Shown here: in pieces, positions 1-26,420 of the stretch
How the letters are laid out: each line of letters starts with the position of its first letter
How positions within the stretch are numbered: position 1 is the first letter of the stretch
NCBI GenBank assembly: GCA_017523305.1
Contig: JAFWWV010000071.1
Location: 1 to 53,260, forward strand
Origin: Clostridia bacterium
GTDB lineage: Bacteria; Bacillota; Clostridia; Christensenellales; UBA1242
Reading direction: 5' to 3'
Length of the DNA stretch: 53,260 nucleotides
Made by a program: the position numbers and the translations under genes
The notes under the pieces: model-generated
What the model was told of the DNA's origin: nothing
The model's input: the letters and a program-made list of their open reading frames with translations, nothing else
Database searches by the model: none

Positions 1-1
1 T

Positions 2-1321
2 TCGCAAGTGGATGGCCATCAATATATCGATAAGGCTGTAGAGCTGGGAGCTACAGTGGTGGTTTGTGAAGAGTTGCCGGTGTCGTGTGCATCGGGTGTA
101 GCTTATGTCAGGGTGGCAAACACTGCCGAGGCATTGGGTCGTCTGGCATCGCAATGGTATGGCAATCCTTCGGCTGCACTCACACTTGTGGGTGTTACCG
201 GCACCAATGGAAAAACCACTACAGCCACACTGCTGTATGAGATGTTTCGACTCTATGGTTACAAGGTAGGACTGCTCTCGACAGTGTGCAATTATGTCGA
301 TGATGAGGCCGTACAAGCAACCCACACAACCCCCGACCCTATATCGCTCAATGCGCTATTGCGCCGTATGGTAGATGCCGGTTGTACTTATGCCTTTATG
401 GAAGTAAGCTCGCACTCGGCACATCAGCACCGTATAGCCGGATTGCAATTTGCCGGAGGTATCTTTAGCAACCTTACTCGCGACCACATGGATTATCACA
501 AGACCGTCGATGCTTACCTGCAAGCCAAGAAAATGTTTTTCGATGCTCTTCCGGTCGGCTCCTTTGCCCTCACCAATATAGACGATAAGGTAGGAGAGGT
601 GATGTTGCAGAATTGTCGCGCTCGCAAGTATACATATTCATTGCGTGCAATGGCCGACTTTAAGGCTCGTACCATTGAGAGTCGCTTGGATGGTACCTTG
701 GTGGCTTTTGATGGGCGTGAGGTAGAGACACATTTTGTGGGTCGATTCAATGTATATAACCTTCTGGCAGTATATGCGGCAACATGCTTGTTGGGGCAAG
801 ACAAGGAACAAACATTGATAAATATGAGCCTGCTAACACCTGTAGCTGGTCGTTTCCAGACAGTATATTCGCCTCGTGGATATGTGGCTGTTATCGACTA
901 TGCCCATACGCCCGATGCACTAACCAATGTGTTGTCGACCTTGCGTGATGTTCTGAGTAAAGATGGACATATCATTACAGTAGTGGGTGCCGGAGGTAAT
1001 CGTGACAAGGGTAAACGCCCGATAATGGCGCGAGAAGCTGCCAAGTTGAGCGATGAATTGGTGCTGACATCCGATAATCCCCGCTTTGAAAATCCCGATG
1101 AGATACTTGCCGATATGCAAGCAGGACTTGATGTGGAGGCAATGAAACATACGCTCGCTATAACCGATCGTCGTCAAGCCATACGTGCAGCTGTGCGGCT
1201 GGCACAACCCGGCGATGTGATATTGATAGCCGGTAAAGGTCATGAGGATTATCAGGAGATACAGGGTGTGAAGCATCACTTTGATGATCGAGAGGAAGTA
1301 GAGATGATTTTTGCCGAATAA
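2..1321 (+). CDS. murE: UDP-N-acetylmuramoyl-L-alanyl-D-glutamate--2,6-diaminopimelate ligase (5'-partial, runs off window start)
   Basis: Mur ligase P-loop [20 protein letters not shown], and TSDNPRFE (the DNPR motif typical of meso-DAP-adding MurE). It is the first gene of a murE-mraY-murD-ftsW-murG-murC order. The GTG at 8 in the ORF track is probably internal. Confidence 0.9.
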
Positions 1322-1339
1322 TAAATAAAAAACAGAATT

Positions 1340-2593
1340 ATGCTATATCACTTTTTTCACGATTTAAATATAGAAATGCCCGGCGTGGGACTATGGAATT
1401 ATATCTCGTTTCGTGCCGGTTTGGCTCTTATATTATCGCTTTTCATATCCACTATTATAGGTAAGCGTATTATAGACTATCTCCGACAAAAACAGATGGG
1501 CGAGTTGGTGCGTAATTTGGGTCTTGAAGGCGAAAATACCAAAAAAGGAACTCCCACAATGGGTGGTATTATCATTATTATCTCTATACTGCTCCCCTGT
1601 TTTCTGGTAGGTCGTTTCGATAGTCTGTATATGATATTGATGCTCATCACAACCGTGTGGCTGGGCTTGCTTGGATATGCCGATGACTATATCAAGGTTG
1701 TCAAGAAAGACAAAGAGGGTATGCATGGCAAATTTAAGATTATCGGTCAGGTGGGATTGGGTCTTATCGTAGGTCTTACACTATACTTCAATCCCGATTT
1801 CGTTATAAGAGAAAATGTTGAAGTTGTAGGAACCAATGGCACTGAGATAGAGTATCAGAAAGAAGATATCAAGTCTATTACAACCACAATTCCTTTTGTG
1901 AAAAATCACAACTTTGATTATGCCGACTTGGTTCCTTTCATGGGCGAGTATCAAGAGATGGCGGGATGGGTTATCTTTATATTGGTTATTATCTTGGTGG
2001 TAACTGCCGTATCGAATAGTGCCAACCTCACCGATGGATTGGATGGTCTTGCTACCGGAACCTCGGCTATAATAGGTGTGGCTTTGGGTATATTGGCTTA
2101 TTTTTCGGGTCACATCGAATATGCTTCTTATTTCAACATCATGTATATACCCGGCAGTGGTGAGTTGGTAGTATTTATGGCAGCCTTTATTGGAGCAACA
2201 ATAGGATTTCTTTGGTACAACTCGGCTCCGGCGCAAGTTTTTATGGGTGATACCGGCAGCCTTACGTTGGGTGGAATTATTGCAGTATTTGCAATACTTA
2301 TACACAAAGAATTGCTTATCCCTATTTTGTGTGGAGTGTTTTTTGTGGAGGCTCTGTCGGTAATTATTCAAACAACCTATTTCAAGATAACCAAGAGACG
2401 TACCGGTGTGGGGCGTCGTGTGTTTAAGATGTCTCCTTTGCATCACCATTTTCAAAAACCCGGCAATGCCGGTATAGATGCTTTGATACAGAAACCCATA
2501 CAAGTTATTCCCGAGACCAAGATTGTTGTCCGATTTTGGATTGTGGGTATAATATTGGCTGTAATTACATTGGTAACCTTGAAGATACGATAA
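1340..2593 (+). CDS. mraY: phospho-N-acetylmuramoyl-pentapeptide transferase
   Basis: Polytopic membrane protein with MraY motifs NLTDGLDGLA, FMGDTGSLTLGG and SPLHHHF. Sits between murE and murD. Confidence 0.92.
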   Translation: MLYHFFHDLNIEMPGVGLWNYISFRAGLALILSLFISTIIGKRIIDYLRQKQMGELVRNLGLEGENTKKGTPTMGGIIIIISILLPCFLVGRFDSLYMILMLITTVWLGLLGYADDYIKVVKKDKEGMHGKFKIIGQVGLGLIVGLTLYFNPDFVIRENVEVVGTNGTEIEYQKEDIKSITTTIPFVKNHNFDYADLVPFMGEYQEMAGWVIFILVIILVVTAVSNSANLTDGLDGLATGTSAIIGVALGILAYFSGHIEYASYFNIMYIPGSGELVVFMAAFIGATIGFLWYNSAPAQVFMGDTGSLTLGGIIAVFAILIHKELLIPILCGVFFVEALSVIIQTTYFKITKRRTGVGRRVFKMSPLHHHFQKPGNAGIDALIQKPIQVIPETKIVVRFWIVGIILAVITLVTLKIR

Positions 2594-2603
2594 AGAAGAA
2601 GTT

Positions 2604-3944
2604 ATGAAAAAAAACAAAATAGTGGTACTGGGTGCCGGAGAGAGTGGAGCCGGAGCAGCCGTGTTGGCCAAGGTAAAAGGCTTTGATGTCTTCGTGTCGG
2701 ATATGTCTTCAATCAAAGACAAGTATAAACAAATGCTTGATGAGTATGATATTGCATGGGAAGAGGGCAAGCATACTCCCGAGCGTATTATGGATGCCGA
2801 TGAGGTTATAAAGAGTCCCGGTATCCCCGATACAGCACCGCTTATAGTGGCACTTGTAGAGAAGGGAGTGCCTGTCATATCGGAGATTGAGTTTGCCGGC
2901 AGATATACCAATGCCCGCATGATATGTATTACCGGAAGTAATGGCAAGACTACCACGACATTGCTTACATACCACATCCTCAAGAGTGCAGGACTCAAGG
3001 TGGGATTGGCCGGTAACGTAGGTCAAAGTTTGGCCTATCAAGTAGCTACCTGTGACTACGAATATTATGTGGTTGAGTTGAGCAGTTTTCAGCTCGACAA
3101 TATGTATGACTTCAAGGCCGATATAGCTGTGTTGCTCAATATCACACCCGACCATCTCGATCGTTACGATCACAAGATGGAGAACTATATAGATGCCAAG
3201 TTCCGCATTACACGTAACCAAACAGCCGATGATGCCTTTATATATTGGAATGATGACCCCATTATCAACGAGAAGTTGCACTCTTTGCAACTCCACTCGC
3301 AACTATATCCTTTCTCAGAGGCACCCCAGCCACAATCAAGGGCCTATACGCACGACCGCAAAGTGGTGATAAATACACCCGATGATGTCTTCACGATGGA
3401 GGAGGATGAGTTGGCATTGCCCGGTCGACACAATCTATACAACTCGTTGGCTGCGGGTATATCGGCCAACTTGCTTCATATCGAGAAGGAAGAAATAAGA
3501 CGAGCTTTAAGTGACTTCCAAGCTGTCGAGCATCGTCTTGAGCCGGTAGCCACCGTACGAGGTGTACGTTTTATTAATGACTCAAAGGCTACCAATGTCA
3601 ACTCTTGTTGGTATGCCTTGGAGAGCATGGTGACACCGGTAGTGCTCATATTGGGCGGAAAAGACAAGGGTAATGACTATACCGAGATAGAACAACTTGT
3701 ACATGATAAAGTGAAAGCTATTGTGTGTATGGGTGTAGACAATAGTAAGTTGCATACCTTCTTCGATGGTAAGGTGTCGCATATAGAAGATGCCCGGTCG
3801 ATGCAGGAGGCTGTTACTAAGGCTTATGCCGTAGCCGAGGCCGGTGACACCGTCTTGCTTTCGCCTTGTTGTGCCAGCTTCGACCTTTTTACAAGTTACG
3901 AAGACCGTGGTGCGCAATTTAAGGAATGTGTGCGCAATTTATAA
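2604..3944 (+). CDS. murD: UDP-N-acetylmuramoylalanine--D-glutamate ligase
   Basis: N-terminal GAGESGAGAA fold and Mur ligase P-loop GSNGKTTT. Sits between mraY and ftsW. Confidence 0.9.
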   Translation: MKKNKIVVLGAGESGAGAAVLAKVKGFDVFVSDMSSIKDKYKQMLDEYDIAWEEGKHTPERIMDADEVIKSPGIPDTAPLIVALVEKGVPVISEIEFAGRYTNARMICITGSNGKTTTTLLTYHILKSAGLKVGLAGNVGQSLAYQVATCDYEYYVVELSSFQLDNMYDFKADIAVLLNITPDHLDRYDHKMENYIDAKFRITRNQTADDAFIYWNDDPIINEKLHSLQLHSQLYPFSEAPQPQSRAYTHDRKVVINTPDDVFTMEEDELALPGRHNLYNSLAAGISANLLHIEKEEIRRALSDFQAVEHRLEPVATVRGVRFINDSKATNVNSCWYALESMVTPVVLILGGKDKGNDYTEIEQLVHDKVKAIVCMGVDNSKLHTFFDGKVSHIEDARSMQEAVTKAYAVAEAGDTVLLSPCCASFDLFTSYEDRGAQFKECVRNL

Positions 3945-3950
3945 TGAACT

Positions 3951-5288
3951 ATGGCTGCAATAGAAACAAATAGAACTCCTAAAAAGAAGGTAAAATACAC
4001 CTCCGATTGGACATTGTGGGCGTGCTATATCATATTGTGTGCGGTGTCGGTGGTAGAAGTATTCAGTGCTAGTAGTCTTGAACTCAAGAATGGTAATGTG
4101 TATCTACCCATTACATCGCATGTACAATGGTTGGGCTTGGGCTTCTTATTGGTTTTCGGGCTGGAGCATCTGCACTATAAGTATACCAAGGCAATAATGG
4201 TATTGGTTGCCGGAGTATCTATCTTGTTGGCTATTCTCACGCCATTGATAGGAGAGAATGTCAATGGTGCTGTGCGTGCAATCAACTTGGGCTTTATTTC
4301 TGTACAAGCAGCCGAGCCATGTAAGTTGGCAAGTGCCATGTTGCTGGCCTATGTATTGTCGCGCATGCAGAAACCCGATGGAACAGGATTGTCGAGCAAA
4401 GGTGTATGGCTGGGTATAGGTATAATATTCATGTTTGTATTATTGCTTATTACCCAAGGAGGCTCCAATGCACTTCTTGTGCTGTTGGTGGGTGGTACGC
4501 TAATGATACTCTCTGTATTGCCACGTAAACTTGTGTGGGGTGGTATAATATCACTTGTTGTGTTGATAATAGCAGCTGTGTCGCTTGTAATCATAACCCA
4601 GACAAGCGATGAGAAGGAGCAAGACTCAGAACAGCTTGCATCGACGATAGTTGTTAAGGAGGAGAAATCAAATAGTGGTATTACGAAAATGTTTCGTGCC
4701 GGAACGTGGAAAAATCGCATAGATGATTGGTTGCCCGACTCTGTTCCCGAGTATGAAAAGCCAACGAGTTATGCCGCTGGAGGAAACTCGCAGAAGCATC
4801 ACGCCTTTATGGCTATTGCCCATGGCAAAGGTATAGGTGTGATGCCCGGCAACAGCCGTGAGTGTTCACGATTGCAATTAGCTTTCTCGGATTATATATA
4901 TGCTATAATTCTCGAAGAGTTGGGACTATTGGGTGGTGGTATTGTCTTGTTGTGTTACTTAGGTATTATCATACGAGCCTGCATGATAAGTAAGAAGTGT
5001 AAGAGTGCCTATGCTTCGTTGCTTATCATGGGTATGGCTTTGGTAATTGTATATCAAGCATTTTATCACATGTGTATATCGGTGGGTGTATTGCCTGTAT
5101 CGGGTCAGACACTGCCTTTCATCAGCAAGGGAGGTACGTCTATCCTTGTTATGAGTATGGCAATGGGCATGATGTTGAGTGTGAGCCGATTTGCTGTAGA
5201 ACGTACCGACTCGGGCTTGAAAACCATCGACGACGATGACGAGTTGCCCGATGATTTGAGAGCCGACAATCCTGCCGGAGGATTTTAA
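3951..5288 (+). CDS. ftsW: SEDS-family peptidoglycan glycosyltransferase FtsW
   Basis: Polytopic membrane protein with the C-terminal SEDS signature GQTLPFISKGGTS. dcw cluster position. Confidence 0.85.
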   Translation: MAAIETNRTPKKKVKYTSDWTLWACYIILCAVSVVEVFSASSLELKNGNVYLPITSHVQWLGLGFLLVFGLEHLHYKYTKAIMVLVAGVSILLAILTPLIGENVNGAVRAINLGFISVQAAEPCKLASAMLLAYVLSRMQKPDGTGLSSKGVWLGIGIIFMFVLLLITQGGSNALLVLLVGGTLMILSVLPRKLVWGGIISLVVLIIAAVSLVIITQTSDEKEQDSEQLASTIVVKEEKSNSGITKMFRAGTWKNRIDDWLPDSVPEYEKPTSYAAGGNSQKHHAFMAIAHGKGIGVMPGNSRECSRLQLAFSDYIYAIILEELGLLGGGIVLLCYLGIIIRACMISKKCKSAYASLLIMGMALVIVYQAFYHMCISVGVLPVSGQTLPFISKGGTSILVMSMAMGMMLSVSRFAVERTDSGLKTIDDDDELPDDLRADNPAGGF

Positions 5289-5306
5289 TTTCAAAATGTA
5301 AGGTCT

Positions 5307-6422
5307 ATGAAAGATAACTTGAGAGTATTGATAAGTGGAGGAGGAACGGGAGGTCATATTTTCCCGGCTCTCTCTATAGCCAATGAGATAAAAATACGTT
5401 TTCCGCAGGCCGAGATTCTCTTTGTGGGCGCGGAGAGTCGTATGGAGATGGAAAAAGTGCCGGCAGCCGGATATAAAATAGTAGGCTTGCCGGTGTATGG
5501 TTTTGACCGTCGCAACATCCTTCGCAACTTCAAGGTGCTGTGGAATTTGGGCAAGAGTATTACTATGGCTCAAAAGCTGATCAAAGAGTTTTGTCCCGAT
5601 GTTGCAGTGGGCGTAGGTGGATATGCAAGTGGCCCTACACTATGGGCTGCATCGCACAAGGGTGTACCTACTCTCTTGCAAGAACAAAATGGATATGCCG
5701 GCGTTACCAATAAATTGTTGGCACATAGGGCCAATGTTATATGTGTGGCATACGAAGGAATGGAACGTTTTTTTCCTGCCGATAAAATCGTAATGACCGG
5801 TAATCCGGTACGTCAAGATTTGCTCAACCCTATGCTCACACGCAATGCAGCTGCCGAGTATTTTGGTCTCGATATGTCCCAAAAAACAATATTGGTGGTT
5901 GGCGGTAGTTTGGGTGCACGCACTATCAATGAGAGCATTGCACAGCAACTCGATGTTATCAGGGAGAGCAATGTGCAGGTAATATGGCAGACCGGAAAAC
6001 TCTATGATAAGCAAGCGCAGGCTCTGCTTGAAGCGCAACCCTCTCCCAATGTGAAACAGATGCCGTTTATATCACGAATGGATATGGCATACAAGGTGGC
6101 CGACCTTGTTATTTCGAGAGCAGGAGCCAGTTCGATATCGGAATTGTGCTTGCTGGAAAAGCCTGTGATTTTGGTGCCTTCGCCCAATGTGGCCGAAGAC
6201 CATCAGACGAAGAACGCCTTGGCATTGTCTTCGCGCAATGCCGCACTTCTTATTACCGATGATAAGGCGCGAGAAGAGCTTGTGCCTCAAGCCCTGCGCT
6301 TGATAAACGATGATGTGCAGCTCTTGTCTATGTCAAATAATATTTCTAATATGGCACAACACAACTCGGCACAGCGCATAGTCGATGAGTTGTGTCGCGT
6401 AGTAGAGGAGAATGAGAAATGA
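5307..6422 (+). CDS. murG: undecaprenyldiphospho-muramoylpentapeptide beta-N-acetylglucosaminyltransferase
   Basis: SGGGTGGHIFPALS N-terminal glycine loop, GGSLGA, and AGASSISE near the C-terminus. dcw position. Confidence 0.9.
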   Translation: MKDNLRVLISGGGTGGHIFPALSIANEIKIRFPQAEILFVGAESRMEMEKVPAAGYKIVGLPVYGFDRRNILRNFKVLWNLGKSITMAQKLIKEFCPDVAVGVGGYASGPTLWAASHKGVPTLLQEQNGYAGVTNKLLAHRANVICVAYEGMERFFPADKIVMTGNPVRQDLLNPMLTRNAAAEYFGLDMSQKTILVVGGSLGARTINESIAQQLDVIRESNVQVIWQTGKLYDKQAQALLEAQPSPNVKQMPFISRMDMAYKVADLVISRAGASSISELCLLEKPVILVPSPNVAEDHQTKNALALSSRNAALLITDDKAREELVPQALRLINDDVQLLSMSNNISNMAQHNSAQRIVDELCRVVEENEK

Positions 6423-6844
6423 AAAGATTGGAGTTGTATAAATCGGTATATTTTGTGGGTGCCGGAGGTATAGGTATGAGTGCGTTGGTGCGCTATTGTT
6501 TGTCGAAAGGCTTGCGTGTGGCAGGCTACGATCGTACGGCTACACCGCTTACGGCACAATTGCAACAAGAGGGAGCAGAGTTGTTTTTTGATGAGTCGGC
6601 TTCGCTCATACCCTTGTATTGTCGCAATGCCGAAGATACACTGGTTGTATACACACCCGCAATACCCAGCAATCATGAGGGCCTGAACTATTTTTTAGAG
6701 AACCACTTTGAAGTTATCAAACGAGCCAAACTGTTGGGACTTATTACTCATTCACTCAGAGGATTGTGTTTTGCCGGTACACATGGCAAGACAACAACGT
6801 CGAGCATGGCGGCACATATATTTGCCCAGTCGCCAGTATGCTAG
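6419..6844 (+). pseudogene. murC: UDP-N-acetylmuramate--L-alanine ligase, 3'-truncated at a composition break (only about 140 codons)
   Basis: GAGGIGMSAL and P-loop GTHGKTTTSSM are present. The ORF ends a few codons after AHIFAQS, exactly where G+C collapses. MurC proteins are normally about three times this length. Confidence 0.85.
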
Positions 6845-7316
6845 ACATTTTGCGTATTAAATCAAAGTTCATTTCGTTTAATATTCTAGCCCCGTAACAA
6901 TGCAAGAAAAAGTTTACATTACCAAAGTTTTGTTTTGCTTTTTCTAAACCCAGTCTTTTACCCCTTGAGTTAGTTGCTAGTGGTAAAAGTAGGGTATCTA
7001 CTAAATCACCAATTTCTTTCATAGTAACTGCTGTTGTGCTATATTTTGGGGCATCTTCTATATGACCATAAGCTACGCCTATAATGTCTACATCGTTATA
7101 AGTTGCCATTTCGTCGCCTATTTGTTGTTTTAAACCTATTAGGTTTTCTGCCATTTTGCATATAGCATTTGCGTCACTTTCGTCTTTTGTGGTGTTTCCA
7201 CCTAAACAAATAACAGTAGGTTTGGTTATTTTAAACTTATTAAAAAATAGTCGTTGCCAGTGGTTTGGTTTAGTTAAATCTCTTTTACCAAAACTTAAAC
7301 TAACACTTTTTTTCAT
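6845..7316 (-). CDS. hypothetical protein, 3'-truncated at the junction (ORF-track 6756..7316 reads through into the murC antisense)
   Basis: AT-rich codon usage. AGGAGA RBS 10 nt upstream of the ATG at 7316. No family recognised. The last roughly 30 residues of the listed ORF are encoded by the high-GC segment and are therefore artefactual. Confidence 0.5.
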
Positions 7317-7393
7317 TTAAACTTAGTCTCCTAAATATTATTATACCATATAACGATAACTTTCTCAATACCTAAAGGTTTTTAAAAAGCGTA

Positions 7394-7436
7394 TAAAAAA
7401 GCAACCCCCTTTTAAAATAAAAAGGAGATTGCCTTA
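7394..7436 (-). terminator. rho-independent terminator downstream of the PHP gene
   Basis: On the minus strand, AAGGCAAUCUCC...GGGGGUUGCUU forms a hairpin (with G-U pairs) followed by a U-run. Confidence 0.5.
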
Positions 7437-7462
7437 TTTTTTTTGATTTTATTTAGTTAAGT

Positions 7463-8308
7463 TTAAATGGTTTTTTGTTTTAAATCTTGCAAAAACTTAT
7501 ATGGAATTTTTAAATTTCCTTTACCTACACCCAGCATAGTATCTGGTTTGTTTTCGCCGTGAAAATCACTTCCACCACTTTGTAAAAGGTGGTATTTTTT
7601 TGCTAAAAACTTAGCATATTCTGTTTCAGCGTCGGTAAAAGTTGAGTATATAGTTTCTATTCCGTTTAAGCCGTTTTCTATAGCAAGTGGTAAAAGTTTG
7701 TTAAGGTCACTTTCGTCGTGCTGTAAAAGTGGGTGGGCAAGAATAGAAACAGCCCCTATATCTTTTATAAATTTTATGGTGGATAAGGTGTCCAGTCTAC
7801 TAGGCTCAACATACAATCCGTAGTCTTTTGAAAGCACTGTTTTAAAGGCTGCGTCCATACTTTCAACATAACCCTTTTTTACTAGTTCGTTTGCTATATT
7901 TGCTCTGTTTAACCTGCCGTTTGGGGTAGAAGATTTTAAACGCTCATAATCAATAACCATACCAATTTGAGATAACTTTTTAACTAAATCAAGGTTGCTT
8001 TCTTCTTTTAAATCGTCAAACTTTTTAACCATTTGGGTTATTTGGTCATAATATTCTTCTTTTATAAAAAGGGCGACAATGTGATACTCTTTATTTTCAA
8101 AGTGGGTAGAAAATTCTATACCGGGTATGGCTTCAAAATGATGTTCTTTTGCTGCCTTTAAAAAACTAGGTAAACCTGTTATTGTGTTGTGGTCGGTTAG
8201 GGCAATAGCCTGTAAACCACACTCTTTTGCCTTTAAAACAAGTTCTTCAGGTGTGCAAGTTCCATCTGAATAATTTGAGTGTGTATGTAAATCACAAAGT
8301 TCTTGCAT
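7463..8308 (-). CDS. PHP-domain metal-dependent phosphoesterase
   Basis: Motifs CDLHTHSNYSDG, ALTDHNT and GGSDFHG. Start moved to the ATG at 8308, preceded by an AAGGGGG RBS; the ORF track starts 14 codons upstream. Confidence 0.8.
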   Translation of the reverse strand: MQELCDLHTHSNYSDGTCTPEELVLKAKECGLQAIALTDHNTITGLPSFLKAAKEHHFEAIPGIEFSTHFENKEYHIVALFIKEEYYDQITQMVKKFDDLKEESNLDLVKKLSQIGMVIDYERLKSSTPNGRLNRANIANELVKKGYVESMDAAFKTVLSKDYGLYVEPSRLDTLSTIKFIKDIGAVSILAHPLLQHDESDLNKLLPLAIENGLNGIETIYSTFTDAETEYAKFLAKKYHLLQSGGSDFHGENKPDTMLGVGKGNLKIPYKFLQDLKQKTI

Positions 8309-8587
8309 TTTTTTAAGCCCCCTTTTGTTTTTATATTTGAAATCTAACAAAAATTTTTAATATAGTCAAACGGTAAATTTGTTTTAAAAAAACATAAACA
8401 TTTTGTTGAGTTTTAGTAAGGTGTTTTTAACTTTTTTAAAAATTTACTATTGTTGTTTAAAACCTAAAAAAAACAATCTTTTAAAAAACTTTTGCTTTTT
8501 AACAATTATCCCCACCTTTAAAAAACTGCAGTAAGTATATTATATATATATTAATTATTGTGAAATACAAAAATTTAAAAATATTAC

Positions 8588-8617
8588 TTGATAAATAAAA
8601 ATAAATAGTGTATTATA
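8588..8617 (+). promoter_or_regulatory. sigma-A type promoter upstream of the Asp23 gene
   Basis: TTGATA, 17 nt spacer, TATTAT, with a TG just upstream of the -10. Confidence 0.45.
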
Positions 8618-8674
8618 TGGTCGTAGTGTGAGAAAAGTCTATGCGACTGTCTAAACTACATTAAGAGGAAAATT

Positions 8675-9025
8675 ATGTCAGTTAAAACTTCAAACGCATT
8701 TGGAAATATTACTATTGATAATGATGCTATAGCAGTTGTAGCAGGTTATAATGCTTTAGAGTGCTATGGTGTAGTAGACCTTGTAGCTCGTAATACAAAA
8801 GAAAGTTTTAACGAATTATTTAAAAGCAAATCCCTTACTCGTGGCGTTAAGATAACAAGCGTGGGTAATCGTATTACAGTTGATTTAAACCTTATACTTA
8901 AATATGGCGTTTCAATTAATGCTGTCGCCGAAAGCGTTAAAAACACCGTTAAGTATAGTGTTGAAAAATTTACTGGTATGATTGTTGATGCTGTTAACAT
9001 TAAGGTCATTGGTGTAAGGGTTTAA
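8675..9025 (+). CDS. Asp23/Gls24-family stress protein (YloU-like)
   Basis: About 116 aa with an Asp23-like pattern (IAVVAGYNALECYGVV, GVKI...V.V.L). Followed by a DAK2 gene, as in the Bacillus yloU-yloV pair. Confidence 0.75.
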   Translation: MSVKTSNAFGNITIDNDAIAVVAGYNALECYGVVDLVARNTKESFNELFKSKSLTRGVKITSVGNRITVDLNLILKYGVSINAVAESVKNTVKYSVEKFTGMIVDAVNIKVIGVRV

Positions 9026-9207
9026 TTTTTATATACTAATACTTAAAAGTCTAAAAAAAGCAAATTGCCTTTAAAGGGCAAGGGTGTTTTTGTTTTTGCT
9101 TGTTTTACTAAAAACTGGAGAATTAAAAAAAGCACCTAAAAAAAACTAATAATACCAATTAGTTTAATACTTACGAAAAAAAATAAAGTGATAAACCACT
9201 TTAACCA

Positions 9208-10863
9208 ATGTGGAGGAATGTTAAATTGCAAAAAACAGTAAACGGAGCAATGTTTAGAAAAATGGTTTTAGCAGCCGCTAACTTGCTTGAAGAAAATAGA
9301 AAATATGTAGACTCATTAAACGTATTCCCAGTACCTGACGGAGATACTGGTACAAATATGAACTTAACCTTTAAATCAGCTACTAAAGAAGTTAATGAAT
9401 GTTTAAACAACAACTTTGATACTTTAGGCGAAGCAATTTCAAAAGGTGCTTTAAGGGGTGCAAGGGGTAACTCTGGTGTTATACTTTCACAAATTTTAAA
9501 AGGTATGGCTTCAGTTATTTCTCAATGTACAGAACTTAAAACAAAAGATTTTGCTAAAGCTATGAAGGAAGGTGCTGATATTGCTTATAAAGCAGTTACA
9601 AAACCTAAAGAAGGTACAATTTTAACTGTTATTAGGGTTATGGCAGAACACGCACAAAGCTCATGCAAAAAACACTCTGACTTTGAAGAATTCTTAAAAG
9701 ACGTTCTTGATAAGGGTGAAGAAATATTAATGGAAACACCAGAAATGTTACCTGTACTTAAAAAAGCAGGCGTTGTTGACGCTGGTGGTAGGGGCTTACT
9801 TGTAATCTTCTCAGGCTTCTACAGAGCATTAGTTAATGATGATTCTGTAAGTTTTGACTTTGTTGATGCAGCAAGTGCTTATGAAAAAGATAAAGAATTC
9901 CACGCAAACTTAGTTGACTTAGCTGAAATTCAATTTGGCTATTGTACAGAATATATGGTTATTAATATGCACAAGAAAACTACTCAAAGTGATATCGAAA
10001 AACTTAGAGAAAGACTTTGTGAAATTGGTGACTCAGTTATTTGTATTGGCGACTTAAGTTTAGTTAAAGTTCACGTTCATACAAACGAACCAAACAGAGC
10101 TCTTGGTTATGCTTTAGAACTTGGCGAAATTACAAATGTTAAAATCGAAAATATGTTAGAGCAAAATAGAGAACTTTTAAAAGCTCAAACACAAAAAGAA
10201 CCACCAAAAGCTATGGGTATGGTTTCAGTTTCAGCAGGTGATGGCTTTGCACTACTTTTCAAAGACTTAACTGTTGACTATGTTATTCAAGGTGGCCAAA
10301 CAATGAACCCAAGTGCAAACGATATTGCACAAGCTATTGATAAGGTTAACGCAGATACAGTTTTTGTTTTACCAAATAACAAAAATATTATTTTAGCTGC
10401 TGAACAAGCTCAAGCTTTAACTAAAAAGAACGTTGTAGTTATTCCTACTCGTAGCGTTCCAGAAGGTATTTCAGCTTGCTTATCATTTAACCCAGAAGCT
10501 ACTATTGAAGAAAACGTAGAAGCTATGAAAGCTTCAATGCAAAGCGTTAAAACAGGTAACGTAACTTACGCTGTAAGAGATACTCACATCGATGACTTTG
10601 ACTTAAGCGTTGGCGAAATTATTGGTTTAGATAATAGCTCTATCTTAGCAAAAGGTAAAGAAATTCCTGAAACTGTTGATGGTTTAGTTGCTAAACTTAT
10701 TGACGAAAACACTGTAAACGTTACACTTTTCTATGGTGAAGAAGTTACTGAAGAAGATGCTATAAAACTTCAAGACGATTTACAAAAGAAATACCCACAA
10801 TGCGAGTTCAACGCTGTTAGTGGTGGACAACCAGTTTACTATTACATTTTATCAATTGAATAA
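9208..10863 (+). CDS. DAK2 domain-containing protein (YloV-like)
   Basis: LNVFPVPDGDTGTNM DAK2 motif and about 550 aa length. The true start may be the TTG at 9226, 9 nt after GGAGG (9212-9216). Confidence 0.85.
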   Translation: MWRNVKLQKTVNGAMFRKMVLAAANLLEENRKYVDSLNVFPVPDGDTGTNMNLTFKSATKEVNECLNNNFDTLGEAISKGALRGARGNSGVILSQILKGMASVISQCTELKTKDFAKAMKEGADIAYKAVTKPKEGTILTVIRVMAEHAQSSCKKHSDFEEFLKDVLDKGEEILMETPEMLPVLKKAGVVDAGGRGLLVIFSGFYRALVNDDSVSFDFVDAASAYEKDKEFHANLVDLAEIQFGYCTEYMVINMHKKTTQSDIEKLRERLCEIGDSVICIGDLSLVKVHVHTNEPNRALGYALELGEITNVKIENMLEQNRELLKAQTQKEPPKAMGMVSVSAGDGFALLFKDLTVDYVIQGGQTMNPSANDIAQAIDKVNADTVFVLPNNKNIILAAEQAQALTKKNVVVIPTRSVPEGISACLSFNPEATIEENVEAMKASMQSVKTGNVTYAVRDTHIDDFDLSVGEIIGLDNSSILAKGKEIPETVDGLVAKLIDENTVNVTLFYGEEVTEEDAIKLQDDLQKKYPQCEFNAVSGGQPVYYYILSIE

Positions 10864-10947
10864 TTGTTAAAATTATATTATGCAATTTAACTAAAGTTAA
10901 AAAATCAAAATTTAACGTTTGTTATAATTTAATAACTTTAATACTTT

Positions 10948-10986
10948 AAAAACCTAGCGAATATCGTTAGGTTTTTATTTTTTTAT
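10948..10986 (+). terminator. rho-independent terminator after the DAK2 gene
   Basis: AACCTAGCG-aatat-CGTTAGGTT hairpin followed by a T-run. Confidence 0.6.
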
Positions 10987-11032
10987 ACTTTTTTTAATTT
11001 AAAAAAATGTCGAAAACCACCTAAAACCCATA

Positions 11033-11061
11033 TTGACTTTTGTTAAAACCCGTGCTAGTAT
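11033..11061 (+). promoter_or_regulatory. sigma-A type promoter for the orphan gene pair
   Basis: TTGACT, 17 nt spacer, TAGTAT. Confidence 0.45.
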
Positions 11062-11093
11062 TTTTTTAAAAGAGAAAGGGGGGAAAGGTGATT

Positions 11094-11639
11094 ATGCCAA
11101 ATATTATTGAAAATAACATTCCAACAGTATATTTGTTAGGAAAAGACCAAACTGTTTACATCTATTTAAACGGTGATGGTTCACTTGTAAAAGCAGAAAA
11201 TAAAGTAGTAAGACGTGAAGGTAGCGAAAGACTTGTAAAATCTGCAAAAACTTTTAGTTTTGCCGATAGTATTAACAAAATTGTTAATCCAAGCGCTATT
11301 GAAAACGCAGTAAACGTTCAAACAATTTATTCAAGGTCAGAAGAAATTGAACAAGCAGAAGATAGTTTAATTATTGATGTTCACCAAGGACAAAACTGCA
11401 TTTTAGGATTTTTAGATAAAAATAACGAAAATGTAATGGGTGGCTATATGTTAAGCACTTTTTCCGAACCAGTTTCTTACAGCGATAAAGGTTTTTGGGA
11501 AAACACATTAAGCGCTGCTCAAACTGAAAATTATTTACAAAGATATGGTCAAACAGACTTAACAAAAGTTAACCAATATTTTGCTTCAGAAAAAATTGAT
11601 ACTATGACAACAACAGCTCTTCAAAGTTTTGAACCATAA
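11094..11639 (+). CDS. hypothetical protein (no family recognised)
   Basis: Clean ORF in host-like codon usage. G-rich RBS (GGGGGGAAAGG) just upstream. The start is either the ATG at 11094 or the GTG at 11088. No signal peptide or TM segment. Confidence 0.6.
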   Translation: MPNIIENNIPTVYLLGKDQTVYIYLNGDGSLVKAENKVVRREGSERLVKSAKTFSFADSINKIVNPSAIENAVNVQTIYSRSEEIEQAEDSLIIDVHQGQNCILGFLDKNNENVMGGYMLSTFSEPVSYSDKGFWENTLSAAQTENYLQRYGQTDLTKVNQYFASEKIDTMTTTALQSFEP

Positions 11640-11742
11640 AAGTTTAATTATATAGGATATATATTATATATATAATTATATAAAAAATATAAAGGCATAA
11701 CACAAATAAAAAAAATAAATAGTTAAAGGAAATACATAAAAA

Positions 11743-12474
11743 ATGAAGAAAACAGAAGTAGAAAGTTTTGAAAAATTACCTTTTTTAAACCCAAAGTTCA
11801 CTAACTTTTTTCAAGGAAGAAAGGGTATTAGTGCTGATTTAAAAAGAATTTTTGAATTAAACAGTATTAAAAATGAAAAATTTAATGAATTGCCACATAA
11901 TTTGTATTTTGGTGAAGATATAACAGAAGTTTTTTCAAACGATGGTTTAATTGATTTTGTATGTCAATTTGATAACTCAGGCGTAGCTAAAGTTATTTTA
12001 GGTTCATTTTCACACAGAGATTTAGATGCTTCTGTTAACTATAACTTTACAATTACTGATAATCCTGCCGAAAGTGATTATTCAATTGCTTTTACAAGAT
12101 ATGAACAAAACTTAGATTTTGTAAAATCAACTTCAGGTGTAGAAAATTATTCTCAAGCTGGTATAAAATCAACATTTTTTAATACAATTGTAAGTTCAGC
12201 TTTAACTGGCGAGTCACTAGAAGCAAGAAGTACTTATGGTTATTATGATGCTGAAGGGGCACTTTGTACTGAAACTTTGTTGTTAGATTATCCAACTCAA
12301 GTAAAAAGTTCTCAATCAAGTTTAGTAGATTTTAGGCAAGATATGCTTGATGCTGGTGCATCTGTAGTTCATATGGTTGATGGTAAAAGGGCAGAACCAG
12401 ATAAAGTTGACGATATTATTAGAACAACTGAGCAAGTATTTGGTACACAAACTACCGAATTTTTGCCTAATTAA
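11743..12474 (+). CDS. hypothetical protein (no family recognised)
   Basis: 243-aa ORF with an AAAGGAAA RBS. No signal peptide or TM segment. Followed by a hairpin at about 12494-12545. Confidence 0.6.
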   Translation: MKKTEVESFEKLPFLNPKFTNFFQGRKGISADLKRIFELNSIKNEKFNELPHNLYFGEDITEVFSNDGLIDFVCQFDNSGVAKVILGSFSHRDLDASVNYNFTITDNPAESDYSIAFTRYEQNLDFVKSTSGVENYSQAGIKSTFFNTIVSSALTGESLEARSTYGYYDAEGALCTETLLLDYPTQVKSSQSSLVDFRQDMLDAGASVVHMVDGKRAEPDKVDDIIRTTEQVFGTQTTEFLPN

Positions 12475-12577
12475 AAATTTTTTAATAAAAAAAAAGGAAA
12501 TAATCAATTAGCGTAGTATATATAGGTTAGTTGATTATTTTTATTTAACTTGTGCTTAAATAAAAAATTTATTTGGA

Positions 12578-14392
12578 GTGATAAAAAGTTTGCAAAACAA
12601 AGGATATCCAACCAGATTTATCGAAGAGTTAAAACAAAAGTGCGATATAGTTTCAACTATTTCTCGTTTTTTAACTTTGCAAAAAAAGGGTAAAACTTAT
12701 TGGGCTTGCTGTCCATTTCACTATGAAAAAACCCCTTCATTTGCAGTAAACGAAGTTGAACAATATTACCATTGTTATGGCTGTGGCGAAAGTGGTGATG
12801 TAATTAAATTTATTGAAAAATATGAAAACTTAACCTTTATGGAAAGTGTTAAATATCTTGCCGATAGCGTAGGGTTAAAGTTGCCAGAGTTAGAGCAATC
12901 TAACCAAGACTTAAAACAAATGAAGTTAAAAGCCGAAGTTTTAAGAGCAACTAATTTGGCAATGAATTTTTATAAAGAATGCCTAAAAACCCCAGTTGCT
13001 TCTCAAGCAAGGGAATATTTAAACCGTAGAGAAATGAACCAAACTATAGTTGATTACTTCAACATTGGTTTCAGTCCAGACTGGACAAGTTTAATTTCTT
13101 ACCTTGAAAAAAACAATGTTTCAAGAGAAGTTATGAAAACTGCTGGGCTCATTGAATTTAACGATTCAGGTAGAGCATATGATGTTTTTGGTACAAGACT
13201 TATGTTCCCAATTCTAAACAGTTTTGGTGATTGCATTGGTTTTACTGCCCGAACACTTGACCCAAACAGCAAGTTTGCTAAATACAAAAATTCTACCCAA
13301 ACTTTAATATTTGATAAAAGTAGAACAATTTATAACATTAATAGTATTAAGCAACTTAAAAAAGAACAAAAAATTGATTACATAATTATTTGTGAAGGTA
13401 CCATTGACGTAATTGCAATGTACAAAGCAGGTTTTAGAAATACCGTTGCTTGTATGGGTACAGCAATAACAAATTATCACGCAAGTCAACTTAAGCGTTA
13501 TAGCGATAAAATTATTTTGTGTTTAGATGGCGACGACGCTGGTCAAAATGCAACCTATAAAGCAATAGATGTTTTAAGCGAACAAGGTTTAGAAGTTAAA
13601 GTTGTAAAACTTAAAGAAAACCTTGACCCAGACGAATTTTTAAAGAAGTATGGGGCAGAAGAATTAAAGTCTACACTTTTAAACGCTGAAGACTGTATTG
13701 AATACAAATTAACAAGCCTAGCACAAAAATATAACTTAAATGATAGTTATCAAAAAAACAAATACATAACAAACGCCCTTGAAATTATTTCAAAACTTGA
13801 TAGTAACGCAGAAAGGGAAATTTATTTAAAAGTTTTATCAAAACGGGTTTTTATTTCAGTTGATGTTTTAAGAAGAGATTTAAGTGGTAGCAAACTAACT
13901 AAACCTTCAAACCCTTTAAAAGCTGAAGCAACCCCAGAAAAACCTTTTGTTGTAAGGCAAGAAGGTAACACAAAAGCAACTAAGTTTATAATAGCAAGCA
14001 TTATTCACAAACAACCTTATGCAGTTGAAGATGTAAGAAAAAACTTTAAATTCAAAAACTCAAGTTATCAAAACTTGTACGATTTTGTGGTTAAGTGTGA
14101 AAGCGAAGGCAAAACTTATACAATAAGTTCATTGTTCGATTATTTTGATGTAGATAATAACCCAGATATAAAGGAAATTATAGACTTCAACTTTGCTGAG
14201 TATGGTGATACTGCTGAAATATATTATAACGAGTGTACAAAAAAAGGTGACTTACCAACACTTGAACAGCAAAAAAAGGAACTTTTAAAATTATATAGTC
14301 AGGCTAGAGAAAATAGTCAAAAAATAGAAATTTTAAGAGATATACAACAAATAGATAAAAAAATAAATAATATAAAGGATAAAAAACAATAA
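12578..14392 (+). CDS. dnaG: DNA primase
   Basis: CHC2 zinc finger ([12 protein letters not shown]...[11 protein letters not shown]) and TOPRIM motifs ([18 protein letters not shown]). The GTG at 12578 overlaps the GGAG, so the in-frame TTG at 12590 is a plausible real start. Confidence 0.92.
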
Positions 14393-15450
14393 TGTATAAC
14401 GAAAAATTCCAACCAGAAATTAATAAACTTGCAGATATAGCAAAAGCAAAAGGCAGTTTAAATGAAGAAGAAATTATTTTAAGACTGCTTAAATATGATG
14501 CTTCTGCACAAGATATTGAAGAAGTTGTAGAGTACTTTGCAAAAAATAAAATTAAAGTTAACAAACAAAGCGAAAACTTTGAAGAAATTGAAGACTTAAG
14601 TAAAATTGCAAGCCAAGTACAAGTTGACGACCCAGTTAAAATGTACTTAAAAGATATTGGTAAAGTTCCATTGCTTACCAGTGATGAAGAAGTTGAATAC
14701 GCAAAACGTATGGCTGATGGCGACGAATATGCACGTAAGAAACTTTCTGAAGCAAACTTAAGGCTTGTTGTAAGTATTGCTAAAAAATATGTAGGCAGAA
14801 CAAGTATGCAATTTTTGGATTTAATTCAAGAAGGTAACTTAGGTTTATTAAAAGCTGTTGAAAAATTCGACTATACAAAAGGCTTTAGGTTTTCAACTTA
14901 CGCTACTTGGTGGATTAGACAATCTATCACTCGTGCTATAGCTGACCAAGCAAGAACAATTAGAATTCCTGTTCATATGGTAGAAACAATTAATAAACTT
15001 ATTCGTGTTTCACGTCAATTACTTCAAACATTAGGTCGTGATCCAACTGCTCAAGAAATTGCAGAAAAAATGGGTATTTCTGAACAACGTGTTTGTGAAA
15101 TTCAAAAAATTGCTCAAGACCCAGTTTCACTTGAAAACCCTGTTGGTGAAGAAGAAGATAGCAAAATTGGTGACTTTGTTGAAGACGAATCAATTAAATC
15201 TCCAGTTGAAAACGCAGCTCAACTTATTTTAAAAGAACAACTTCTTGCTGCTATTGACACTTTGACCCCTAGAGAACAAAAAGTTATTAGACTTCGTTAT
15301 GGTTTAGACGATTCACACCCAAGAACTTTGGAAGAAGTTGGTCGTGAATTTGATGTTACTCGTGAAAGAATTAGACAAATTGAAGCTAAAGCTTTAAGAA
15401 AATTAAGGCACCCAAACAGATGCAAAAAATTAGAAGGTTTCTGTGACTAA
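14392..15450 (+). CDS. rpoD: RNA polymerase primary sigma factor
   Basis: Region 2 ([29 protein letters not shown]) and region 4.2 ([30 protein letters not shown]). TAATG overlap with dnaG. Confidence 0.95.
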
Positions 15451-16120
15451 AGATAAGCGCATTAAAACTATTTGTAATATGGTTTTTACCCCTGTGGTTG
15501 CTGAAATTGGTGCCGACCACGGTTATATTACAAAAGAGTTGTTTGAACAAAACAAAATTACAAACGCATTTTTAACTGATATAAGTTCAAAATGTTTGCA
15601 AAAAGCGTTAACTAATTTTAAAAATTCTAGTTACAACCAAAACTGCACCTTTTTAGTAGGCGATGGTTTACAAGCACTAAGCCAAGTAGAAAACAAACAA
15701 AATATCGGTCAAATTATTATTGCTGGTATGGGTGGGCTAGAAATTATTAAAATTTTAAAAGATGAGCAAGCAAATTTTTACAACCAATTTGTTTTGCAAC
15801 CACAACGAAATGTTGTAGAATTAAGACAATTTTTACAAGATAATAATTATTTTATTTGCTCAGACCGTATGGTTAAGGAAGGTAAAATTTATTACAACGT
15901 ATTAAAAGTAAAAAAAGTTGATAAGCAAGTTTTGTTAACTCAAGATGAAATTCTTTTTGGTAAATCAAATTTAGTAGAGTTTAATCCTGACTTTGTAGAT
16001 TATTTAAAATTTGAAATTGCAAAGTTAACCGAAATTCTATCAAAAAAAGATATGCCAGAAAAATTAACTTATTTAAAACAGTTACAAAACATACTTACTA
16101 ACAAAACTAAAGGAGTATAG
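15443..16120 (+). CDS. trmK: tRNA (adenine(22)-N(1))-methyltransferase
   Basis: TrmK-like motifs ([19 protein letters not shown]). dnaG-sigA-trmK synteny as in Bacillus. GTG start overlapping the rpoD stop. Confidence 0.75.
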
Positions 16121-16126
16121 GCTTAT

Positions 16127-16819
16127 ATGTTTGAAAAAATATTAGAGTATCAAAAATTAGATGGTAAATTACGTAACCTTAAAAGAGAACTTGATAATAA
16201 TCCAGCAAAGCAAAATTTAGAAAAAATTAAAGCAATTGGAAAAGACTCTCAAAATAAATTAATCGAGTTAGAAAATAAAGCAAAAACAGCTATTGCAGAC
16301 CACGCTAAGTATAAAGCTGAATATGAAAAAGTTGTAACTCAATTAAATGCTATTAATAAAACAAGTGTTGATAGTATGACAGAAGAACAAATCAATGATA
16401 ATTTAGAAAAAGCAAATGCTTTAGTTAATGTTTTAGTTTCTCTTGAAAGAAATTTATCTTCACAAGCAAAATTAGTAGAAGATATTCTTAAAAACTTTGA
16501 AATTTGCCGTAACAACATTGTTATTAATAAACAAAAATATACACAATGCAAAGCAGAGTGCGATAAATTTGAAGAAAATTCAAAACCACAATTTGAAGAA
16601 ATTAAAAAACAAATGTTGGAAATGGAAAAAGATATTGATAAAAACTTGCTTGCTAAATATAAACATTGCAGACAAGATAAAAAGTTCCCAGTATTTGTTC
16701 CACTTAACAATAACTCTTGTGGTGGTTGCAGTATGGAAATTTCAGCAGCTCTTATGAACAAACTAAAAGCTGATGGCTACCTTGAATGCGAACAATGTAG
16801 AAGATATATCTATCTATAA
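16127..16819 (+). CDS. coiled-coil zinc-ribbon protein (COG1579-like)
   Basis: Long coiled coil followed by a C-terminal CGGC...CEQC zinc ribbon. Confidence 0.65.
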   Translation: MFEKILEYQKLDGKLRNLKRELDNNPAKQNLEKIKAIGKDSQNKLIELENKAKTAIADHAKYKAEYEKVVTQLNAINKTSVDSMTEEQINDNLEKANALVNVLVSLERNLSSQAKLVEDILKNFEICRNNIVINKQKYTQCKAECDKFEENSKPQFEEIKKQMLEMEKDIDKNLLAKYKHCRQDKKFPVFVPLNNNSCGGCSMEISAALMNKLKADGYLECEQCRRYIYL

Positions 16820-16833
16820 AAAAAAATAAAAAG

Positions 16834-16862
16834 GTGATGAGTAAAATCTCGTCACTTTTTTT
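16834..16862 (+). terminator. rho-independent terminator
   Basis: GTGATGAG-taaaat-CTCGTCAC hairpin plus a T7 run. Confidence 0.6.
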
Positions 16863-17098
16863 ATATCTAAAAACAAAGTTAATAAAAAATAACACACATA
16901 GAACTCTTAAAATAAAACACTAAAATTAAGAAATTAAAAATAACTAAAAGAATAAAGTTTTTAAAATCTTTTTCAGCGTAAAATTAAATTAATAAAACCA
17001 AAAACACTTGTTTATTTTGTTTATTTTGTTATACTAATTTTATAAAAGATTATTACTTTTTGTATTTTTTTGTAGGATAAGAGAATAAGTTTAGTTAT

Positions 17099-18757
17099 AT
17101 GGATAAAGATAAAAAAGTTATACAATTTAATCAAGATGATGAATTTTATTTTGAGTTAGGCAAAAAATATTTACAAAATGGCGAGTTAGTAAAGTCTATT
17201 AGGTCTATGCATACAGCAATTTCTAAAATAACTGTACGAAACGAAATTTTACTTTCAAGTTATCACTTAGTTTTAGCTCAAGCATATTCAATGGTAAATA
17301 ATTTAGAGTTGTCTAATTATTATTACTATTTATGTTTAAATGATGGCGACCTATTTGCTCAATTTGCTTTTAGGGGTTTAGGCGAAAATTTTGCATTGCA
17401 AAAAGATTATATGATGGCAAGGTTCTATTTAAACCAATGCGTAAATATAATGGAAAACTCTCAACTTGCTGATAGTGCTAAACAAAAATTAAAACAAATA
17501 GGAAAGGGTAACACCAAGGGTTTTAAAATTGTAGGGCAGGAAGATAAGTTATTGCAAGAAAAAAAATTAGCACAAGCCGAAAACTATATGTCAAAAGGCA
17601 AATTTGAAAAAGCCATTGATGTTTTAGAAAAAATTGGCGATTATACCGACCCACGTGTTAGAGCAGAACTTGCGTTAGCATACTTTTTTACAAATGAAAG
17701 TCAAAAAGGTGTAGAACTAATTAAAACTTTTGGCGAAGATAATATTTTAGACCTATGCAACTTGCTTTTAATTTATTTTGTGGAAGAAGATAAAGAAAAC
17801 TACGCAAAAATAAAAGAAAAGTTAAGAAGTTATAAAGTAGAAAAAGAAGAAGATAACTTTAAAATAGGTTTAGCTTTTGCTCAAACTGATGAACTTACAT
17901 TAGCAAAACTTTATATGGAAAAGTTTTTAAGTCAAGCAAAGCACGAACCTGAACTGGAATTTTTATATTGTCTTGCTTGTATTAATAATAAAGATTATGA
18001 CATAGCAAAAAATAAGTTGTTAGATTTAAAATCTCTTGACCCATTTAACAATTATGTTTTTGATTATTACCTTAATATGTGCGAAACAAAACCTGACCAA
18101 AAAGTAGAGTACTTGTTTAATTTGCCTATGAATAAGTTTTTAGAAGTTCAAAACCAAGTTAAACACTTTTTAGTTAAAAAAGATGAAGATTTAAAACAAG
18201 ACTTTTTAAACAATAAAGATTTGTTTTATTTTATAGCAAACCTACCAGAAAGCAATGTAAAAAGTTTATTACTTTTAAAACTTGCAAAAATTGAGAGTAA
18301 AGAGTTAAATGACTTTTTTAACTATATTTTGCTTCAAAATGGTGTCAAACCAAAATTAAAAGAAAACTTAGCATTAAGTAGACTTAGTTTAGATAAAGTT
18401 ACTTTAATTAGTTTAACAAGAGATAATTTCTTTACCAAACTAATTATTCCTAACAAAAAAGCAACTAAATTAAAAAGTGAAAAGTTAAACAAAGCAACCT
18501 TAAATTGTTGTGAATTTTTACTTACAAAAACAGCAACAATGAAAATAAACATAAAAAACAAAGTTATTTATATCGAGCGAAAAGAACTTCCAGAAGATGA
18601 AATTGACGAAAATGTTTTGTCAGCATACCTTACATGGACAGTTGTAAGCGTAAATAAACTAGCAACTTTAAATGATGTTTGTTTATATTTTTCAGTAACT
18701 CAAGCACAATTTTATGACTTTATTAAAAAATATCAACTTGCTGATTATATGCAATAA
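17099..18757 (+). CDS. helical-repeat (TPR-like) protein, function unknown
   Basis: 552-aa ORF. The N-terminal half has TPR-like periodicity (e.g. AENYMSKGKFEKAIDVLEKI). No specific family recognised. Confidence 0.45.
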   Translation: MDKDKKVIQFNQDDEFYFELGKKYLQNGELVKSIRSMHTAISKITVRNEILLSSYHLVLAQAYSMVNNLELSNYYYYLCLNDGDLFAQFAFRGLGENFALQKDYMMARFYLNQCVNIMENSQLADSAKQKLKQIGKGNTKGFKIVGQEDKLLQEKKLAQAENYMSKGKFEKAIDVLEKIGDYTDPRVRAELALAYFFTNESQKGVELIKTFGEDNILDLCNLLLIYFVEEDKENYAKIKEKLRSYKVEKEEDNFKIGLAFAQTDELTLAKLYMEKFLSQAKHEPELEFLYCLACINNKDYDIAKNKLLDLKSLDPFNNYVFDYYLNMCETKPDQKVEYLFNLPMNKFLEVQNQVKHFLVKKDEDLKQDFLNNKDLFYFIANLPESNVKSLLLLKLAKIESKELNDFFNYILLQNGVKPKLKENLALSRLSLDKVTLISLTRDNFFTKLIIPNKKATKLKSEKLNKATLNCCEFLLTKTATMKINIKNKVIYIERKELPEDEIDENVLSAYLTWTVVSVNKLATLNDVCLYFSVTQAQFYDFIKKYQLADYMQ

Positions 18758-18860
18758 TTTTTAAATTTTTATTTGTTAATTTTAAACATAAAATTGCTAT
18801 TGTATTTTTATATAATATTTGTTATAATAGTTTTAGAAATTTATAAAGGGGTTTATCCTT

Positions 18861-19118: not shown

Positions 19119-19130
19119 AATTAAAAAATA

Positions 19131-19163
19131 AAAAAGTTAAGAAAATTTTCTTAACTTTTTTTT
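19131..19163. terminator. bidirectional terminator between convergent genes
   Basis: Perfect palindrome AAGTTAAGAAAATTTTCTTAACTT flanked by A- and T-runs. Confidence 0.65.
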
Positions 19164-21968: not shown

Positions 21969-21980
21969 GGTAAAAACACA

Positions 21981-26413: not shown

Positions 26414-26420
26414 GAAAACA

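Follow-up and report, generated by a model that had tools for sequence, protein, structure and literature searches.

A compositional switch within a 53-kb contig is very probably a misassembly of Bacteroidales and Clostridia DNA

The DNA analyzed here, a 53,260-bp contig (hereafter, the window), consists of two segments of different origin joined at positions 6837/6838, and this join is very probably an in-silico misassembly that represents the genome of no organism. The abrupt switch is a data-quality problem, in which 6.8 kb of Bacteroidales DNA and 46 kb of Clostridia DNA from a ruminant-gut metagenome stand side by side, and it has no biology behind it. The original prediction, made from the window alone, had named a chimeric assembly, a binning error, and a contig concatenation as possible causes. 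The first of these stood; a binning error and an N-padded concatenation were rejected, as the window is a single gap-free contig without any N, the join included.

Composition of the window and position of the join

The GC content was 45.4% over positions 1–6836 and 29.7% over positions 6839–53260, and the maximum-likelihood single GC change point of the whole window was placed at 6836–6854. When chunks of 3.4 kb were compared, tetranucleotide correlation was about 0.3 across the join, 0.84 within the left side, and 0.85–0.97 within the right side. Mean GC3 was 0.46 on the left and 0.17 on the right. Codon choice on the left side was 0.38 for GCC, 0.42 for CGT, and 0.44 for CCC, and the favored codons on the right side were GCA/GCT, AGA, and CCA. 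The 34 right-side genes ended in TAA (30 genes) or TAG (4 genes), and none ended in TGA. Composition, codon usage, and tetranucleotide signature all change at one base, the join. A switch near position 6840 had been predicted, with GCC/CGT/CCC codons upstream and AT-rich genes with nearly all-TAA stops downstream; the exact breakpoint lies within 3 bp of that position, and the codon counts and the 30 of 34 TAA stops agree with this description. GC and tetranucleotide profiles, which had been proposed as a check and were run here, both shift at the join.

The crossover point (6837..6838) is a TA dinucleotide that is present in both parents, with native murC contigs matching the window up to 6838 and native Clostridia contigs matching it from 6837. 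The homology of the two parents at the join is limited to this dinucleotide, and the join position is ambiguous by 2 nt. According to our own calculation, in which equal base frequencies were assumed, a chance overlap of at least 2 nt occurs in about 16% of random joins, and the TA overlap is therefore uninformative on the mechanism. Repeat-mediated collapse was also considered and was rejected, as the parents share only 2 nt.

Origin of the left side

The left part of the window (1..6838, plus strand) was assigned to a Bacteroidales parent on the basis of NCBIfam equivalog matches and 100.000% identity with nine contigs of other assemblies (L097–L099 and L101–L106). This dcw segment carries, all on the plus strand, murE without its 5′ end (8–1321), mraY (1340–2593), murD (2604–3944), ftsW (3951–5288), murG (5307–6422), and the first 140 codons of murC (6419–6838). 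The nine native contigs were reached via the identical MurG protein, which is present on many contigs of other assemblies. Their 100.000% identity to the window persists until exactly 6838, where they diverge; past this position, they read GGGTGCAAT..., which yields a 458-aa murC followed by ftsQ, ftsA, ftsZ, yqeY, and serS. Two short contigs, L003 and L004, agree with this native murC continuation. The N-terminus of MurC shared 60–64% identity with MurC fragments from MAGs of Muribaculaceae, Bacteroidaceae, and Tannerellaceae, and the 90% cluster of the left-side MraY contained names of Bacteroidales and Bacteroidaceae MAGs.

Two further observations were made on this organism. Across ten assemblies, whose accessions have several different prefixes, the Bacteroidales segment was 100.000% identical, without a mismatch in up to 6838 bases, whereas the co-occurring Clostridia genome differed by 0.14–0.8% between samples, which indicates that the Bacteroidales population is unusually clonal. 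In addition, L003 (SAMN15830033 scaffold_521891; positions 715–717) and L004 (ERZ28018977 k141_1124063; positions 705–707) have an in-frame TAG at murC codon 172, which is GAG (Glu in a conserved EADE motif) in the nine other contigs of the same organism. This TAG looks like a G-to-T error or variant in data of very low depth.

Origin of the right side

The right part of the window (6837..53260; 46,424 bp) was identified as a Clostridia (Christensenellales-like) chromosome segment by family annotation and by collinear native contigs. Its gene order starts with a 186-aa ORF on the minus strand, a PHP phosphoesterase gene, asp23, yloV/fakA, two unknown ORFs, dnaG, rpoD, and trmK. Farther to the right are genes for V-ATPase subunits I, c, A, and B, a 1683-aa surface-type protein, PFOR, and then truA, rplM, and rpsI; the last genes are a thioredoxin-reductase-like gene and glf with glycosyltransferases. 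The sole Rfam match in the window was a large bacterial SRP RNA (50836–51099, minus strand). All of the core genes that had been expected downstream of the switch, namely rpoD, dnaG, rplM, rpsI, SRP RNA, and V-ATPase, were found, as were trmK, PFOR, and truA.

FakA was 92% identical to that of a "Clostridia bacterium" MAG, 85% identical to that of an "uncultured Christensenella sp." MAG, and 57–65% identical to those of many Christensenellales, Onthoplasma, and Pumilibacteraceae MAGs, and the RpoD cluster includes Clostridia and Christensenellales MAGs. With a Bacteroidales MraY cluster on one side and Clostridia/Christensenellales relatives of FakA and RpoD on the other, the predicted union of Bacteroidota with Bacillota DNA was confirmed. 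Exact look-ups of the 551-aa and 545-aa forms of FakA found neither on record. The nearest GTDB relatives (L010–L013) lack the neighborhood formed by the PHP gene and the native 329-aa form of the first ORF, and they are uninformative on the join. A 39-mer adjoining the join had 0 exact matches among GTDB species representatives; therefore, neither the genome of the window nor an identical strain is a GTDB species representative.

Native contigs of this parent were reached via the PHP and RpoD proteins in SAMN15830001, -03, -06, -08, and -33, in ERZ28018841, and in Logan SRR13872444, SRR32129109, and SRR31077522. The eight of them that reach the breakpoint (L005–L009, L090, L091, and L093) align with the window from exactly 6837 at 99.2–99.7% identity. 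Leftward of 6837, native contigs complete the 329-aa ORF with its remaining 169 codons, which in the longer contigs are followed by rpe, a radical-SAM gene, fmt, def, priA, and rpoZ. The 6837–53260 segment was 99.2–99.9% identical to and collinear with native contigs (L005–L009, L090–L093, and L107–L109), collinearity being compared over 6837–25451 and 45222–53260.

The stop codon usage noted above extends beyond the window. In the Clostridia genome (window 6839–53260 and L005 10993–18799), none of 42 genes ends in TGA, 38 ending in TAA and 4 in TAG, and in-frame TGA is also absent from these 42 reading frames. The missing TGA probably reflects the strong TAA bias of a genome with 30% GC; alternatively, TGA may be an unused or unassigned codon. 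In the 1683-aa protein (30466–35517, plus strand), a C1 peptidase domain of the papain family occurs together with five MBG domains (YGX-type) and a Listeria-Bacteroides repeat; the protein presumably serves the Clostridia organism as a large protease or adhesin on its surface.

Genes cut at the join

The breakpoint cuts two genes inside their reading frames, including the normally essential murC. The murC gene as called in the window (6419..6844, plus strand; 141 aa) consists of 140 native codons, a spurious Cys codon (6839–6841), and a TAG stop codon (6842–6844), the last two of which come from Clostridia DNA. Its product matches TIGR01082 over positions 2–124 of 449 and equals the native 458-aa MurC (...AQSPVGCNAFLGG...) over 140 residues. 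The expectation that murC stops after about 140 of some 450 codons was thus accurate, with 140 of the 458 native residues kept, and the missing part, for which a search had been recommended, is intact in nine other assemblies.

The second gene is a chimeric 186-aa ORF (6756..7316, minus strand), which was delineated by comparison with L005 10993–11982. Codons 1–160 (7316 to 6837) are the N-terminal half of the native 329-aa ORF of the Clostridia genome, and codons 161–186 plus the stop codon (6836 to 6756) are antisense murC. Residues 1–160 differ from the native form in L005 by three substitutions. A convergent ORF with an antisense murC tail had been described correctly; the tail has 26 residues and not about 30, and 169 of the 329 native residues are lost, not only the tail. 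The 329-aa orphan ORF had no Pfam, NCBIfam, or PDB match, and tblastn gave only matches of 23% identity at two related MAG loci (L044 and L049). A word-index homolog search with the 186-aa ORF gave no matches and missed even the native 329-aa protein, whose ORF was found through the neighboring PHP gene; an exact look-up likewise located no record of the 186-aa ORF.

No repeats, inverted repeats, or target duplication were present at the join, with only short chance repeats nearby, and no att sites, tRNA, or mobility genes were found there. No tRNA genes were found in the window, and no integrase, recombinase, or mobility genes were found in the Pfam and NCBIfam annotation, which covered 33 of the 40 ORFs of at least 110 aa and was supplemented by precomputed Pfam results for five more on native contigs. 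These results bear on a genomic island or a horizontally transferred block, either Clostridia DNA in a Bacteroidales chromosome or a dcw fragment gained by Clostridia. The sole observation in favor of such a block is the abrupt compositional boundary within one contig. However, integrase, tRNA, direct repeat, and a second boundary are missing, both boundary genes are destroyed, and the "cargo" would be core housekeeping genes in native synteny. Moreover, the join is absent from other assemblies with identical or near-identical parents, and the Bacteroidales part matches free-living Bacteroidales contigs at 100% identity, with no amelioration. We consider the probability of an island to be negligible. 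An insertion of real Clostridia DNA is implausible because murC is disrupted and because the insert would be native, collinear core chromosome. The original prediction had likewise argued against an island in a Bacteroidota genome, and its view is upheld by the different native continuations of the two parents elsewhere, the lack of mobility genes, and the native order of the core genes.

Recurrence of the join and contig ends in related assemblies

The truncated 141-aa MurC was on record on only two other contigs, one from an ENA re-assembly (ERZ28653805 XIEF21-1_SAMN15830031 scaffold_2985; 29,112 bp; L001) and one from Logan (SRR12529280_2440976; 1,120 bp; L002). Both were 100% identical to the window and ended at 6891 and 6866, respectively, thus containing 53 and 28 Clostridia-specific bases past the join. 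The Clostridia scaffold_517 of this ENA assembly (75,140 bp; L092) stops at window position 6837, and scaffold_2985 and scaffold_517 share a terminal 55-mer (6837..6891) as an exact 55-base suffix/prefix overlap. Likewise, the last 30 bases of the Logan contig exactly overlap the first 30 bases of the end of scaffold_517. All other assemblies found with either parent had the native arrangement, and a junction 34-mer had no match in JGI metagenome contigs. The join is restricted to two assemblies, the ENA re-assembly of SAMN15830031 and Logan SRR12529280, and the latter is probably the same library as this BioSample.

Logan assemblies are built with k = 31, k-mers seen once are discarded, and each 31-mer is kept once (PMC12424806). 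Because each 31-mer is kept only once, neighboring Logan contigs overlap by 30 bases (k − 1). Because singleton k-mers are dropped, each junction 31-mer was seen at least two times, indicating that a physically fused molecule was sequenced. The overlap of 55 bases suggests that 55 was the largest k of the ENA assembler. As unbranched edges would be merged, two contigs that end on a shared k-mer point to a third edge and thus to a branching de Bruijn vertex, and this third edge is presumably the native continuation of the 329-aa ORF. On the murC side, neither the ENA contig nor the Logan contig has a branch at 6838; therefore, the native murC continuation was kept in neither graph, and low depth or tip clipping would account for this loss.

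Both ends of the window also correspond to features of the ENA re-assembly. A 10-N gap in scaffold_2985, in which 40 native murE bases are missing, immediately precedes base 1, and a 100-N gap in scaffold_517 begins directly after base 53260 (gap positions 2685–2694 in L100 and 8040–8139 in L107, respectively). The window length equals that of the two pieces merged at the 55-base overlap (6891 + 46424 − 55 = 53260). At its right end, the window stops within an E/D-rich low-complexity ORF that extends from 52077 to beyond 53260, and contigs of two other samples stop at the same base. The Clostridia part of the window differs from scaffold_517 by 0.14–0.34%. The window is therefore no simple fusion of these two ENA contigs but the product of a different assembly, or of a co-assembly, with another resolution of strain bubbles.

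The coincidence of both window ends with contig boundaries and the length of the merged pieces would also fit a purely computational join made without any bridging read, through a shared repeat, a chance overlap of ends, or concatenation during binning or scaffolding. Nevertheless, the parents share 2 nt only, and no repeat could have linked them at k = 31 or k = 55; were it not for the 53 Clostridia-specific bases already contained in scaffold_2985, there would be no 55-base overlap; and the window is free of N. Furthermore, the independent Logan contig, which was built straight from the reads, has 28 Clostridia-specific bases, and as this contig contains the junction, the junction k-mers must be in the reads. 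A join of this kind is very improbable.

The presence of a fused molecule in the reads raises a different explanation, namely that Clostridia DNA was really joined inside murC of a Bacteroidales cell or of free DNA in the sample by illegitimate recombination. Each junction k-mer was seen at least two times, no rival native branch exists on the murC side in the ENA or Logan contig, and the 2-nt TA overlap is compatible with illegitimate recombination. On the other hand, an overlap of at least this length arises by chance in about 16% of random joins, the normally essential murC is cut at codon 140 of 458, and mobility genes, att sites, and repeats are absent. The Clostridia side is collinear with native contigs where compared and carries rpoD, dnaG, rplM, rpsI, SRP RNA, and V-ATPase, and every other assembly with either parent has the native arrangement. 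The halt of the Clostridia scaffold of the same assembly at the vertex, moreover, implies a competing native edge. A real recombinant molecule is accordingly very unlikely, and even if present, it would represent no genome, only a dead-end by-product. The narrower case, in which the fused molecule formed in vivo in the ruminant gut by inter-phylum recombination between Clostridia and Bacteroidales, e.g., after DNA uptake, is more doubtful still; such a molecule would have had a very low abundance and would have become a contig only through the low depth of the Bacteroidales organism.

Discussion

The evidence points to a chimeric assembly, and we infer an in-vitro chimera as the source of the bridging reads, a low depth of the Bacteroidales organism, and a third, native edge at the vertex. 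The events may have taken the following course. The Bacteroidales organism would have been present at low depth in the SAMN15830031 library, and its dcw region would have been broken into a 6.9-kb piece between coverage gaps; an N-gap in scaffold_2985 bounds the Bacteroidales piece on its other side, and the N-gaps of this scaffold are no more than an indirect hint of low depth. A few reads would have carried murC fused to the interior of the 329-aa ORF of a co-resident Clostridia species. Their source was possibly both mates of one short chimeric library fragment, since overlapping mates of a single short insert would yield a k-mer count of 2. With the native murC continuation lost through a coverage gap or tip clipping, the chimeric fragment would have been the only surviving extension, and the k-mers of the fused reads would have connected the Bacteroidales contig, at its dead end, with a vertex in the Clostridia de Bruijn path. 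The ENA re-assembly and the Logan assembly halted at this branching vertex, and the assembler of the present contig would have passed it by pairing the chimeric edge with the Clostridia edge and dropping the true Clostridia continuation.

Both the sample label (XIEF21) and the BioSample range are consistent with the study of ruminant gastrointestinal metagenomes by Xie et al. 2021 (PMC8199421), which suggests that the library derives from that study. Its libraries were prepared with a TruSeq PCR-free kit with 350-bp inserts and sequenced as 2 × 150 on NovaSeq, and MEGAHIT and IDBA-UD were used for single-sample assemblies and MEGAHIT for co-assemblies (PMC8199421). A PCR-free library rules out PCR template switching as the source of the chimera; fragment-to-fragment ligation is a possible source. 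Judging from the contigs, the present join resembles chimeric inserts produced by such ligation during library preparation in its unrelated parents with 0–2 nt of homology, its low-multiplicity junction k-mers, and the occurrence of both donors in the same sample. It differs from library-preparation chimeras in general in that, with a PCR-free kit, only ligation-type or cluster-level artefacts apply.

The window also has the characteristics of the chimeric contigs that arise in metagenome assemblies. Phylum, GC, codon usage, and tetranucleotides all switch at a single base, the breakpoint interrupts genes, each side continues differently elsewhere, and the join is confined to two assemblies that probably stem from the same library. 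Inter-genome chimeric contigs in short-read metagenome assemblies and MAGs are the target of GUNC, metaMIC, and DeepMAsED. Nothing essential distinguishes the present case from such contigs, and it is unusually well documented: other assemblies stop k (55) and k − 1 (30) bases past the breakpoint, and the termini of the window lie at scaffold gaps, so that no reads are needed to reconstruct the graph topology.

Genomic islands and integrative elements are the usual biological cause of abrupt GC shifts, and the window shares with them the abrupt compositional boundary. In contrast to such elements, it has no integrase, att/tRNA site, or flanking repeats, and what it contains is core chromosome whose gene order is native; no other sample has the join, and the normally essential murC is destroyed.

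As a consequence of the misassembly, a public Clostridia-type MAG probably carries 6.8 kb of Bacteroidales cell-wall genes, an artificially truncated murC, and a broken orphan ORF. The contig, which is complete at its recorded length of 53,260 bp in a GenBank genome record, and its protein products are listed in NCBI and nr. NCBI and nr are also among the recorded sources of the 141-aa MurC fragment; therefore, the misassembly has already placed a spurious protein in public databases. Taxonomy, synteny, horizontal gene transfer, and pseudogene calls based on the whole contig would be wrong, an example being the statement that "Clostridia acquired a Bacteroidales dcw cluster." The remedy is to split the contig between 6838 and 6839, or equivalently between 6836 and 6837, before any downstream inference. 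Misjoins of this type can be diagnosed without reads by seeking contig ends that overlap by k or k − 1 bases in public assemblies of the same or related data. There is no real genomic feature at the join, and the value of this finding lies in data hygiene, not in biology.
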